This document shows positions 3-3,911 of a DNA stretch of 64,000 nt, in pieces. The notes beneath the pieces were generated by a model. It saw only the letters and a program-made list of their open reading frames with translations. It searched no databases and had not been told where the DNA came from. Numbering within the stretch: the first letter of the stretch is position 1; every line of letters starts with the position of its first letter. The DNA is from an uncultured Chloroflexia bacterium (GTDB taxonomy: Bacteria > Chloroflexota > Limnocylindria > Limnocylindrales > CSP1-4). The position numbers and the translations under genes are program-made. The stretch is taken from positions 256,001-320,000 of the forward strand of contig CAWHXD010000008.1 of assembly GCA_963833225.1 (NCBI GenBank), written 5' to 3'.

Positions 3-611
3 GCCGACTCAACCGGCTACTCGGAGGGCACGCACCTCCACTTCATGGTCGAGGCCACGCCCACCATCCGGACGGCCCCCGGCTGGTGGTGGAGCCAGTC
101 CGTCCCGATCACGTTCGCCGACGCGGGACGACCGCTGGAGTGGCAGTCCTACACGTCCCGGAACGCGGCCCAAGTCGCTCCCACACCGACGCCTAGCCCG
201 ACCCCAGTCCCGCCCACGCTCAAGGTGGTGCAGTCGTGCAGGAAGGAGGCCACGCTGTCCAACCCCCCAGTGATCTGGTCGAGCCCCTTCCTCAAGATCA
301 GGTACACCGGGGACCTCGGGGTGAGGCGCGGGGGGGCGCTCGTGTTCCCGGCTGCTGGCTCGGGCTATCCTGAGACCTCTCCACGCAATGGCGGCATTGT
401 GGCCCAGTGGGGTGCGGGGATCCAGGTCTGGAATGGGAAGCTCACCGGCAACCCGCTGAAGACCATCACCCCGGACGCTCACTCAGCGTACTTCGAGATC
501 TCCGAACGCCGTCCGGGGTCCGAGGCTGGGAAGAAGTACTGGGTGGCATTCGCCCCGGCGTCCCCGCACGACCCGACAGCTGTAGAGATCACGATCCGGA
601 AGTGCCCCTGA
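3..611 (+). CDS. M23 family metallopeptidase, 5'-truncated by the window edge, with Pro/Thr linker and unknown C-terminal domain
   Basis: The frame from nt 3 reads ADSTGYSEGTHLHFMV, matching the M23 C-terminal 'TGxSxGxHLHF' motif. It is followed by the linker VAPTPTPSPTPVPPT and stop TGA at 609-611. Confidence 0.7.
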   Translation, partial: ADSTGYSEGTHLHFMVEATPTIRTAPGWWWSQSVPITFADAGRPLEWQSYTSRNAAQVAPTPTPSPTPVPPTLKVVQSCRKEATLSNPPVIWSSPFLKIRYTGDLGVRRGGALVFPAAGSGYPETSPRNGGIVAQWGAGIQVWNGKLTGNPLKTITPDAHSAYFEISERRPGSEAGKKYWVAFAPASPHDPTAVEITIRKCP

Positions 612-617
612 TATACC
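609..617 (+). promoter_or_regulatory. Extended -10-like element (TG-A-TATACC) of the IS110 circle-junction promoter
   Basis: After circularisation at the CT core it would pair with TTGACA at 2018-2023 with an 18-nt spacer. It lies ~6 nt before the predicted RNA 5' stem. Confidence 0.55.
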
Positions 618-622
618 GCCTT

Positions 623-787
623 GTGGGTCGATCATGACATCGACCTCCACGGGGAGACCGGTGCGGCCCTATCCGGCAGATGACCGTTGTCGCTAGTGTC
701 CGGCCCCCGACCTTCGGCCGTGAACGGTGATCGGGATCCTGCGGCAGTTGACCGGTGATCGGACCCGTCAGGTGACGTCGGCCGGGG
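623..787 (+). ncRNA. Putative IS110 bridge RNA (5' stem-loop, target-binding loop, donor-binding loop)
   Basis: Stem-loop at 623-650. Loop 651-707 contains CGCTAG (691-696), the reverse complement of target CTAGCG. Loop 712-787 contains GGGATC (733-738), equal to the donor left side 2033-2038. Twin internal hairpins CGGCAG(A/T)TGACCG sit at 674-686 and 742-754. Confidence 0.8.
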
Positions 788-830
788 CGTCCGGGACCCC
801 CTTGAGGTCCGCCGAAGGAGGCTGGCCAGG

Positions 831-2021
831 ATGACGACGATCGGGATCGACATCGGGGGACGGACGCACGTCGCAGCCCGCTGCCGGGACGGCGAGTCCC
901 GGGCCGACCGGGAGATCCTCCGGGTCAGCCAGGACCGAGCGGGCTTCACTGCCCTCGACACCTGGCTCGAGCAGCAGCCGGAACCCGTGACGCTCGTGAC
1001 GATGGAGTCGTCGGGCCACTACTGGATGCCGCTGGCCAGTCACCTGCGGCGGCGCGATGTCCCGGTCGCGGTGGTCAACCCGCTCGCGGCGAAGTACTTT
1101 GCGAGGAGCCGCCTGGGCCGCACGAAGTCCGACCCGGCCGACGCCCGGAGCCTTGCCGAGATGGCCATGCGCGACACGCCCGACACCCGCGATCCGCTCG
1201 CCGGCGCCGAGCTGCGCCAGGCGGCCCGCTTCGCGATGACCCTGGTGACCGAGCAGGCCAGGGTCTGCCAGCGCCTCATCCGCCTCGTCGAGCTCGGCTT
1301 CCCGGAGCTCGGCGAGCTGTTCGACGACCCGACCTGCCGAACGGCCCGGGAGGTGCTGCGCATCGCGCCGACGGCACGCGCTGCCACCCGTCGCCGGACG
1401 TCGACCCTGGCCAACGCCAATGCCGGTCCGGGTCACCGACGCCTCGGGACGGCGAAGGCGGAGTGGCTCCAGGCGGCTGCGGCCGACTCGATCGCGGTGC
1501 CCGGGCTTGACGCCGAGATCGCCTTCGAGGTCGACCTCCTGCTCGACCAGTACGACCTGCTCGAACGCCAGATCGGCGACGCCGACCGGCGGGTCGCGGG
1601 ACTCCTCGACGGCGAGACGGCCAGCCGGCTCCAGACCATCCCGGGTGTCGGGCCCTCGATCGCCGCCACCCTGCTCGCTGAGATCGGCGACATCGGGCGC
1701 TTCACCGACTTCGACGAGCTCCTCGCCTATGCCGGCGTCCACCCGGCCGAGCGGAGCTCGGGCCGCAAGGGGGCGAACCCCGAGACCTCCTGGCACATGA
1801 GCAAGGCCGGCAACGCCAACCTCCGGGCAGCGGCGTACCGGATGGCGGTCGTCGGGGTCCAGCACAACCCGGTCATCGCTGCCCACTACGCCCGGAAGCG
1901 GGCCGCCGGCAAGAGCAAGATGAACGCGCTCGGCCACTGCATGCGCAAGGCTCTGAGCATCGTCTGGGGCGTCTGGCGCAACGGAGCGGACTTCGACCCG
2001 GACTGGGGGGCCGAGGCTTGA
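831..2021 (+). CDS. IS110 family recombinase/transposase (DEDD RuvC-like + Transposase_20)
   Basis: IGIDIG, MESSGHYW and KSDPADA supply the DEDD residues, followed by IPGVG, ERSSG (Tnp serine) and SKAGN. RBS AAGGAGG at 815-821. Confidence 0.96.
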   Translation: MTTIGIDIGGRTHVAARCRDGESRADREILRVSQDRAGFTALDTWLEQQPEPVTLVTMESSGHYWMPLASHLRRRDVPVAVVNPLAAKYFARSRLGRTKSDPADARSLAEMAMRDTPDTRDPLAGAELRQAARFAMTLVTEQARVCQRLIRLVELGFPELGELFDDPTCRTAREVLRIAPTARAATRRRTSTLANANAGPGHRRLGTAKAEWLQAAAADSIAVPGLDAEIAFEVDLLLDQYDLLERQIGDADRRVAGLLDGETASRLQTIPGVGPSIAATLLAEIGDIGRFTDFDELLAYAGVHPAERSSGRKGANPETSWHMSKAGNANLRAAAYRMAVVGVQHNPVIAAHYARKRAAGKSKMNALGHCMRKALSIVWGVWRNGADFDPDWGAEA

Positions 2022-2023
2022 CA
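2018..2023 (+). promoter_or_regulatory. Perfect -35 box (TTGACA) in the IS110 right end
   Basis: TTGACA overlaps the transposase stop codon, 14 nt before the right CT core. Confidence 0.65.
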
Positions 2024-2164
2024 AGACCCTATGGGATCTAGCGTCTCACGCAAGATCGCCGAGCCGATCATCTGGCGAGCCCCACGGCGGATAGGCTGAC
2101 CAGCGGTCGCATTCGCGCGTTGCGACGATCACGACCGATGAATGCGTGCAGCGGGTCCCCAGAT

Positions 2165-3332: not shown

Positions 3333-3911
3333 CTAGTGGCTGAGGCCGTCCCTGATCCCCGCGACATAGGGCTTCGGCAGCGTCGCGTTCGCGTACGCAT
3401 AGACCATCCCGGCCAGGTTGTAGAACTCGAGGTCTTTGAACGTCGAGTAGTTGTCCCAAGTCCTGCGAATCAGCGCTTCGCAGTAGAGCGCCTTGTTGGT
3501 ATCGGGGTCGCCCTTCAGAGTCGGATCTCCGCTCTGGCAGTGCTTCCACGTGTCCAGGTACGTCTGGAGGACCCACTTGCTCTCGCCGCTGGTGTCAGTA
3601 GCACCCGGGTACTGCGCCAGAACCGACTTGATTGCCGAGCGGACCTTGGAAGCGGAAGGCTTCGCCATCGAGGCCTTGAAGAGGCTCGCTATCGGAAGCA
3701 GCGTTGGTGTCGGGGCGGGCTCCGGCGAGGATGTCGGGGTGGGCGTGTCGACCGGTGTCGGCGTGACGGTTGGCGCATTGGGCGTGACCGGCGGCTGCGT
3801 GGCCGCCTGACTCCCTGCGACATCCGGCGCTGCACTGCCTCCGCACGCGGCGACCATCAAAGCGAGGAGCGTGGCCACGACCGTGCCCTTGACTGCCCTG
3901 CCCTGCTGCAT
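3333..3911 (-). CDS. Lipoprotein, paralog B
   Basis: 192 aa. The first 70 aa are identical to paralog A. The C-terminal domain is divergent but keeps WxxC...CE...FYxLAxxVYAxAxATL. Confidence 0.8.
   Translation of the reverse strand: MQQGRAVKGTVVATLLALMVAACGGSAAPDVAGSQAATQPPVTPNAPTVTPTPVDTPTPTSSPEPAPTPTLLPIASLFKASMAKPSASKVRSAIKSVLAQYPGATDTSGESKWVLQTYLDTWKHCQSGDPTLKGDPDTNKALYCEALIRRTWDNYSTFKDLEFYNLAGMVYAYANATLPKPYVAGIRDGLSH

Follow-up and report, generated by a model that had tools for sequence, protein, structure and literature searches.

An IS110-group insertion sequence with a probable two-loop bridge RNA in a G+C-rich Chloroflexota-type genome

The stretch of DNA considered here (the window) comprises 64,000 nucleotides, positions 256,001 to 320,000 of contig CAWHXD010000008.1 (assembly GCA_963833225.1), from an uncultured Chloroflexia bacterium. 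The source genome amounts to 3.89 Mb in 20 contigs with 71% G+C and holds three copies of one element. The copy in the window, at 608-2039, is very probably an intact insertion sequence of 1,432 bp from the IS110 group of the IS110 family, in which a recombinase gene is preceded by the gene of a bridge RNA. Its left end (610-830) is non-coding and 221 nt long and its right end (2022-2039) is 18 nt long, lengths that give it the IS110-group layout as described in the available part of PMC11208160. Long sub-terminal inverted repeats are absent, and reading of the sequence near the ends revealed just a TAT...ATA trinucleotide pair. Unless stated otherwise, features lie on the forward (+) strand and are numbered from the first letter of the window.

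The recombinase gene (831-2021) encodes a protein of 396 amino acids (aa) and is preceded by a ribosome-binding site, AGGAGG (817-822), which lies 8 nt 5' of the ATG and, read from the sequence, is conserved in the alignment of homologues. Residues 4-158 of the protein match PF01548, the N-terminal RuvC-like DEDD domain (E=1.9e-27), and residues 265-353 match PF02371, the Tnp domain (E=2.5e-22). The solved structures matched by the protein are those of bridge recombinases only, with E-values of 3.1e-23 for ISCro4 and 8e-23 for IS621 in a single-sequence search, and a profile of 19 homologues matched IS621 (8wt6) at E=5.2e-35 and ISCro4 (9t56) at E=9.1e-35. In the profile alignment, where the chain numbering is offset by 2, D7, E59, D101 and D104 of the RuvC-like DEDD domain and S310-G311 of the Tnp domain align to D11, E60, D102, D105 and S241-G242 of IS621. 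These catalytic residues are invariant or at least 90% conserved among the 19 homologues, and residues from about 122 to 208 are unaligned to the solved IS621 chain. With both Pfam domains and the aligned catalytic residues present, the protein is the IS110 recombinase that an initial annotation had claimed from the letters of the window, and by analogy with IS621 it would bind RNA and catalyse recombination.

The ends of the element are fixed exactly because the three genomic copies share 608-2039 between differing flanks. Their alignment agrees exactly from the CT at 608 through the CT at 2039, and the flanks are unrelated between copies. The junctions read GCCC|CT...CT|AGCGT in copy 1 (the window copy), AGCC|CT...CT|AGCGG in copy 2 and GCCC|CT...CT|AGCTG in copy 3, so that a CT core stands at both junctions of all three; the cores that had been placed at 608-609 and 2038-2039 were thereby confirmed independently. 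Copy identity starts at the left core (608-609). At the other end it stops at 2039, apart from a shared flank AGC, and this boundary and the right-end alignment delimit the left donor ATGGGAT with the right copy of the core (2031-2039). The left target, AGTGCCC (601-607; left target positions 1-7), extends over the bases where the copy flanks differ, and its covarying part is 604-607 (GCCC) only. The right target, AGCGT (2040-2044; right target positions 1-5), was delimited by the copy alignment and by per-position matching. Between copies 1 and 2 there are only three differences in 1,432 bases (at 662, 665 and 1716), which implies recent transposition, and 662 and 665 both lie within the 9-nt left target guide described below. 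Copy 3 has decayed, with 95% identity, many small indels and a reading frame broken into three pieces.

A protein search of genome contigs returned 142 relatives, most of them from metagenome-assembled genomes (MAGs) of Chloroflexota (Limnocylindria) and Dormibacterota. The best 80 (L004-L083), with amino-acid identities of 59-91%, were combined with the three own copies into a set of 83 loci, 70 with enough upstream DNA and 72 with the right-end region. The left end was unrecognisable at the aligned place in four of the 70 (L009, L040, L048 and L051). Nearly all other loci start with CTGATATA and end in ...CTTGACAAGACCCTATGGGATCT, and their flanks diverge exactly at those points; CTGATATA forms the first 8 nt in 65/68 left ends, and CT stands before GATATA in all 68 located left ends. 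Right flanks start with A in 51 and with AG in 49 of 55 loci. The set holds 48 distinct left and 38 distinct right target guides. A covariation check across homologous elements had been proposed in the initial annotation, and in this set the guides do co-vary with the flanks and ends.

The first loop of the RNA, the target-binding loop (TBL), contains two segments that track the DNA at the insertion site. The left target guide (LTG) is TGCGGCCCT at 662-670, and its informative part, 665-670 (GGCC + CT), is the top-strand sequence of the left target. In 66 loci, the aligned counterpart of 662-670 was compared with the seven left-flank bases plus CT. Positions 4-7 match the flanks at frequencies of.48/.65/.73/.85 versus.28/.27/.33/.63 after permutation, and positions 1-3 are at chance (.27/.23/.27 versus.36/.28/.29 permuted). 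Total matches reached 360, as against 291.5+/-8.6 in permuted sets (maximum 321; z=8.0), a value attained in 0/2,000 permutations. The right target guide (RTG), TCGCTAG (690-696), is the reverse complement of CT+AGCGA, and the real flank is CT+AGCGT. When the segment aligned to 687-696 was compared, as its reverse complement, with CT plus eight right-flank bases in 55 loci, positions +1 to +5 matched at.93/.93/.82/.89/.82 versus.86/.66/.30/.30/.32 permuted, and matching was at chance level at +6 to +8. The total of 381 matches, compared with 274.3+/-7.2 (maximum 300; z=14.9), was again reached in 0/2,000 permutations. Since the signal on the left is limited to LTG positions 4-7 and CT, the programmed target is the 11-bp sequence GGCC-CT-AGCGA. 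The ideal target GCGGCC-CT-AGCGA that had been predicted therefore holds in these 11 bp and carries no signal in its outer left bases; the 9-nt left guide is to be shortened in the same way, and CGCTAG (691-696) stands as a right target guide.

An unbiased scan of mutual information (MI) between variable RNA columns and flank or end positions (3,668 pairs, 54 loci) gave the same picture. Its nine top pairs include four between the RTG and the right flank (691/R+4, 690/R+5, 692/R+3 and 693/R+2), all complementary, and three between the LTG and the left flank (667/L-2, 666/L-3 and 668/L-1), all identical. The pair 772/L-1 is complementary and belongs to the donor loop discussed below, and the last, 773/R+4, shows neither identity nor complementarity and resembles noise, the flank column involved being the most variable one. 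The own copies agree with this pattern. At LTG position 4, copies 1 and 2 carry G and A, respectively, each equal to its own target position 4. When the 1,922 oriented CTAG sites of the genome were scored against the guides of each copy at nine positions, the real target of copy 2 scored 8/9 with its own guides (7 of the 1,922 sites score that high) and that of copy 1 scored 7/9 (62 sites). Own guides also fit the own target better than the guides of the other copy do, with 7 versus 6 for copy 1 and 8 versus 7 for copy 2. A further position in this loop, TG at 697-698, corresponds to the TBL handshake guide. In all homologous loci compared, the first base is complementary to the donor (positions 7-6) in only 20/58 and the second in 19/58. 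According to the available part of PMC11208158, this guide adjusts efficiency and is 'conserved in many' systems, and as a criterion it is therefore not strict. Two sites among the homologues (L028 and L077) read CT|CAGCC and not CT|AGCC; a one-base displacement of the cut or an off-target insertion would look like this. Contigs of a sediment metagenome (run X5) match the element from 669 onward and differ in the letters just before, at the place of the LTG; this fits an LTG that may be hypervariable among otherwise similar elements.

The second loop, the donor-binding loop (DBL), carries guides that correspond to the ends of the element. The left donor guide (LDG), GGGATC (733-738), is identical to the last six right-end bases up to the C of the core (2033-2038). 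The hexamer at this place equals the right-end hexamer in 58/61 loci, comprising GGGATC (47), GGGACC (5), GGGTTC (3) and GGGACT (3), and the misfits are L003 (the decayed copy), L028, with one mismatch, and L040, whose left end is not homologous. GGGATC, which had been named as the left donor guide, thus tracks four variants of the right end. The right donor guide (RDG) is GTCAG (767-771), which pairs with CTGAT (608-612) with one G.T wobble (767/612). The sequence (A/G)TCAG occupies this place in 68/70 left ends. GTCAG goes with CTGAC in both loci with that left end and with CTGAT in six loci including the window, and elsewhere ATCAG is found with CTGAT; the covariation of the first base rests on just two loci with a changed left end. 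The initial annotation had instead taken ATCGG (758-762) as the right donor guide, a reading under which GTCAG would be incidental. ATCGG can indeed be drawn against CTGAT with one G.T wobble, and it lies in the block GGTGATCGG, which is well conserved among the closest homologues. A discontiguous RDG is also described for IS621 in the available text of PMC11208160, so that the block could add contacts, for example U-AU opposite ATA 613-615. The five bases, part of a conserved GGTGAT(C/G)G block, however, read ATGGG, ATGGA or ATCGA in homologues that retain CTGAT, which breaks the pairing, whereas (A/G)TCAG is kept and has G as its first base in both CTGAC loci. Base 772, which follows it directly, complements LTG position 7 in 67/70 loci (C-G 56, G-C 9, T-A 2) and, in 87% of 54 loci, the actual flank base (L-1), and the handshake guide of IS621 likewise adjoins the RDG. 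The assignment of ATCGG as right donor guide is therefore improbable, and the GGTGAT block may have another role. With GTCAG as the RDG, the DBL handshake guide falls at 772-773, where G772 is complementary to target position 7 (C607); base 772 behaves and sits like the DBL handshake guide described for IS621 in the consulted part of PMC11208158.

The left end had been described as a 5' stem-loop and, after it, two stem-loop modules, and pairing across the homologues supports these three modules, with all quoted strings found where they had been placed. The 5' stem-loop (622-649) contains GGTCGAT (626-632) and ATCGACC (639-645), and in the minimum free energy (MFE) fold it pairs from 622-649 to 632-639. 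It is clear by eye, lies in a poorly aligned stretch with 68-71% of cells paired, and shows double-sided changes in helices 2-3. The target-binding module (651-708) has an outer stem of 651-654 with 705-708 and 658-661 with 700-703, in which GGGG and CCGG form the 5' arm, and encloses the inner hairpin 674-686. Its 3' arm consists of CCGG 700-703 and CCCC 705-708, so that the module ends at 708 and not at 707 as first stated. The donor-binding module (712-787) has an outer stem of CTTCGGCCG (712-720) with CGGCCGGGG (779-787), extended by 724-726 with 776-778, and encloses the inner hairpin 742-754. The two inner hairpins, CGGCAGATGACCG and CGGCAGTTGACCG, are 12/13 identical, as had been noted, and keep CGGC...GACCG in all homologues, which equally fits an internal duplication of the loop or two copies of one protein-binding module. 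Downstream, a small hairpin GGACC/GGTCC (794-810) was read from the sequence between the bridge RNA and the ribosome-binding site, and homologues have a similar GGxACCCC..GGGGTCC motif.

The outer stem of the donor module shows compensatory changes (for example UA:29 CG:17 UG:11, and AU:47 GC:8 at pair 724/778). The stems of the target loop are 99.6-100% paired in 57 sequences and nearly invariant, so that they and the equally invariant inner hairpins offer no covariation evidence either way. From the 57-sequence alignment, RNAalifold returns the outer stem and the inner hairpin of each module. It also pairs GG 726-727 with CC 738-739, which was rejected since this would bury the LDG and since 724-726/776-778 shows the AU-to-GC covariation instead. 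The hand-drawn structure of 38 pairs is 86% paired, compared with 28-50% for slid controls, and has 104 double-change cells compared with at most 45 in these controls; its covariation score was reached by 0/500 shuffles. Overall, domains, ends and guide covariation agree with the proposal that the left end encodes a two-loop bridge RNA with loop 1 for the target and loop 2 for the donor.

A life cycle of the element can be proposed by analogy with IS621. Excision as a circle would join the right end to the left end at one CT. This junction would place TTGACA (2018-2023), a -35-like box sharing bases with the stop codon (2019-2021), at 18 nt upstream of TG-n-TATACC (609-617), and the two could act as a junction promoter. 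The latter box reads TG-A-TATACC, as a candidate extended -10-like box, and its bases 610-612 (GAT) are also the right donor sequence read by the RDG. TTGACA is present in 67/77 right ends, TATA would follow across the junction at a distance of 18 nt in 69/77, and TG-n-TATA is present in 65/68 left ends. Transcription would start near 623-626 and give an RNA of about 165-190 nt. In this RNA, loop 1 (651-708) would read the target through 665-670 (GGCC+CT), which has the top-strand sequence and would pair with the bottom strand. Loop 2 (712-787) would read the donor through 733-738 (GGGAUC), which equals the right-end terminus, and through 767-771 (GUCAG), which would pair with CTGAT at the start of the left end, and once the strands are exchanged, the handshake base G772 could pair with target position 7. 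For the exchange at CT, and for insertion into sites of the type GGCC-CT-AGCGA (11 bp), the 396-aa DEDD/Ser recombinase would act as a tetramer. Circle, promoter, termini of the RNA, binding and catalysis are all drawn here as they are pictured for IS621. The right end of L059 and L062, from one Dormibacterota MAG, has its last ~34 nt tandemly duplicated, including a TTGACC box and stopping at ...ATGGGAT, and five loci of one MAG (L026, L027, L028, L037 and L077) carry an insertion of ~30 nt between the -10-like box and the 5' stem-loop.

Several observations weigh against the interpretation of 608-2039 as an intact element with a working bridge RNA. The MFE of 620-800 is no better than that of shuffled sequences (z=+0.92; 160/200 shuffles fold at least as well), and a permissive Rfam search of 400-2300 gave no matching family, only a chance psbNH match at E=6.3. 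Shared guides among loci of one genome somewhat inflate the apparent independence of the loci in the permutations (2,000 per guide). Expression and circle formation are proposed by analogy with IS621. The -10-like box is without T at position 6, in the window as well as in the left ends read by eye, and the conservation of CTGATATA could be purely that of a donor sequence. A promoter and terminator scan of the linear element (500-2200) found none, and a junction promoter is invisible to such a scan. Four DNA sequencing runs (X1, X2, X3 and X5) yielded short contigs inside the element only, with neither flank covered and no joints; no RNA run was listed, and the best-matching DNA runs contained at most 0.25 of the query words and are silent on an empty allele or a circle. 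The left-flank DNA (1-607) has no orthologue in 40 other genomes (24 of the same genus and 16 of the same order), where matches were at most 54 nt long, and the left-flank protein has no relative in metagenome contigs. The empty site was accordingly not found by way of its flanks in these genomes and contigs, the joined string itself not having been searched. In the own copies, the target of copy 3 fits its own guides poorly (5/9). The window copy has two mismatches in its nine target positions (GGCC versus GCCC and AGCGA versus AGCGT), the G.T wobble in its RDG, a TBL handshake that lacks complementarity to donor positions 7-6 (T, A), and, in the 5' stem-loop, a loss of 2 nt that leaves a bulge where homologues have a stem of 13 bp.

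The folding energy speaks neither for nor against the RNA in this G+C-rich sequence, and support had to come from the comparative tests. Together with the Rfam result it allows the view that the left end is a mere 5' leader of the transposase gene, or a region that regulates it, and that the guide matches arose by chance in a 71% G+C genome, a view that also has the chance-level matching of the first three LTG positions on its side. It is hardly credible, however, because the matching of neither guide was attained in any permutation, the top covariation of the unbiased scan falls on both sides of the loop in the expected strand sense, and the donor guide follows the four right-end variants. 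Another explanation accepts the bridge RNA family as real and regards the window copy as a stranded or weakened element that no longer moves. The mismatches, the wobble, the handshake and the stem deletion of this copy would suit such an element, as would the decay of the third copy (95% identity, frame in three pieces) and the one perfect 9/9 genomic site for the copy 1 guides, which is left unoccupied. On the other hand, the open reading frame (ORF) is intact with all catalytic residues present, and the near-identity of the second copy (3/1,432 bases) speaks for recent transposition. Mismatches at the nine programmable positions are also common among the homologues: the 54 loci divide into 5 with none, 21 with one, 20 with two, 5 with three, 2 with four and 1 with six. 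Two or fewer are thus found in 46/54, and one or two are the commonest state (41/54). A stranded copy is on this evidence unlikely, and an intact element with a bridge RNA is the reading followed below.

The targets of this family are centred on CTAG, a sequence that occurs 961 times in the source genome compared with ~10,300 times expected from base composition at 71% G+C. In the window, the ORF that precedes the element (3-611, open where the window starts) stops at a TGA that the junction creates (C|TGA), and the reconstructed empty site would read CCC TAG in the same frame, so that insertion swaps the stop codons and leaves the upstream protein unchanged. Across the loci, the frames that end at the left junction stop are open for at least 80 codons in 27/63 compared with 41/126 control frames. 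Those ending at the right junction stop (minus strand, TAG kept) are open over that length in 35/62 compared with 38/124. These counts, in G+C-rich DNA, are suggestive only. It is possible, if doubtful, that the Chloroflexota/Dormibacterota subfamily is a 'CTAG-seeking' bridge system that limits harm by means of a shortened 4+2+5-bp address. If so, the conserved UAG that ends the RTG would force insertion into CT|AG, within a tetranucleotide that is depleted ten-fold in the host and that often coincides with a TAG stop codon. On one side TAG would give way to TGA, supplied by the first bases of the element (CT-GA), and on the other CTAG would be retained, so that genes ending at the site would stay intact.

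Close relatives of the element were also found on contigs binned to unrelated lineages, namely Nitrosopolaris (L064; an archaeon, on a 76-kb contig), Binatia (L018), Thermoanaerobaculia (L030), Gemmatimonadota (L043), Acidiferrum (L060) and Solirubrobacteraceae (L075). The placement of these six could reflect horizontal spread or mis-binned repeat contigs. A further match to the IS110-family DEDD domain is located elsewhere in the source genome, at G000:C19:756340-756780 on the minus strand (E=1.7e-16), and is not a copy of the 608-2039 element. The window also contains two neighbouring minus-strand ORFs, 2350-2934 (194 aa) and 3333-3911 (192 aa), whose first ~70 residues or so are identical, with a lipoprotein-like signal and then a Pro/Thr-rich linker, and whose C-terminal halves differ but are related. 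The stretches between the genes are repeated as well, and the pair looks like the product of a recent tandem duplication.

Thousands of IS110 elements have predicted bridge RNAs, and a 2026 preprint, as far as its accessible text goes, clustered 181,180 IS110-adjacent intergenic sequences from GTDB genomes (10.64898/2026.10.21.760802). The cluster of the window element may already be catalogued in such surveys. A full-text search for an IS110 bridge RNA from Chloroflexota brought up only that preprint, and the mention of Chloroflexota in its accessible text concerns another RNA; it is plausible that the element is so far uncharacterised. The element adds a bridge recombinase that is cleanly annotated and, judged from its sequence, probably active, from a genome of Chloroflexota type with 71% G+C. 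Its relatives form a natural series of ~50 re-addressed elements (48 left and 38 right guides) that reveals the truly programmable positions of the RNA in this branch (4+2+5 bp and a single handshake base), and that could help in the design or testing of orthologues for high-GC hosts. A tool-free reading of the raw sequence had put three of the four guides in the right place.

Among the known systems, IS621 of Escherichia coli is a member of the IS110 group with a bridge RNA of 177 nt (available parts of PMC11208160 and PMC11208158). The bridge RNAs of IS110 elements are described in the former as consisting of a 5' stem-loop and two loops, the first of them variable and the second conserved, with the 5' sides of the loops pairing to the bottom strand and the 3' sides to the top strand over 4-7 nt including the core. 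The window element resembles IS621 in its two Pfam domains, the aligned DEDD and Ser-Gly residues, the CT core, the long left and short right end, and an RNA with a 5' stem-loop, a variable target loop and then a conserved donor loop. The 5' loop sides again have the top-strand sequence and the 3' sides are complementary to the top strand, core included. The right target is likewise of 5 nt, the DBL handshake base adjoins the RDG, and the -35-like box of the right end would face the -10-like box of the left end, an arrangement like that of the junction promoter that the available text reports for IS621. It differs from IS621 in that its protein has 396 aa and not 326, its target is centred on CTAG and not on the REP-type sites given in the accessible part of the IS621 paper, its TBL handshake is non-complementary in 38/58 loci (window included), 12 nt lie between the inner hairpin and the RDG, its LTG has only four informative positions plus the core, and it is known from sequence alone. 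ISCro4, a bridge recombinase used for genome engineering (related preprint 10.1101/2025.05.14.653916), shares the domain order and matches the family profile (PDB 9t56, E=9.1e-35), and is a distant relative only, with two aligned stretches and a likeness judged on the protein. Elements of the IS1111 group, including those with a seekRNA (consulted in part in PMC13604230), have the same recombinase family and the same RNA-guided principle. Their guide RNA, however, lies in a long right end and they have long sub-terminal inverted repeats (PMC11208160, available part), whereas the RNA of the window element lies in the left end and the right end has 18 nt. Overall, the departure of the window element from the known IS110-group bridge systems is one of degree only, and the picture of how these systems work is unchanged.

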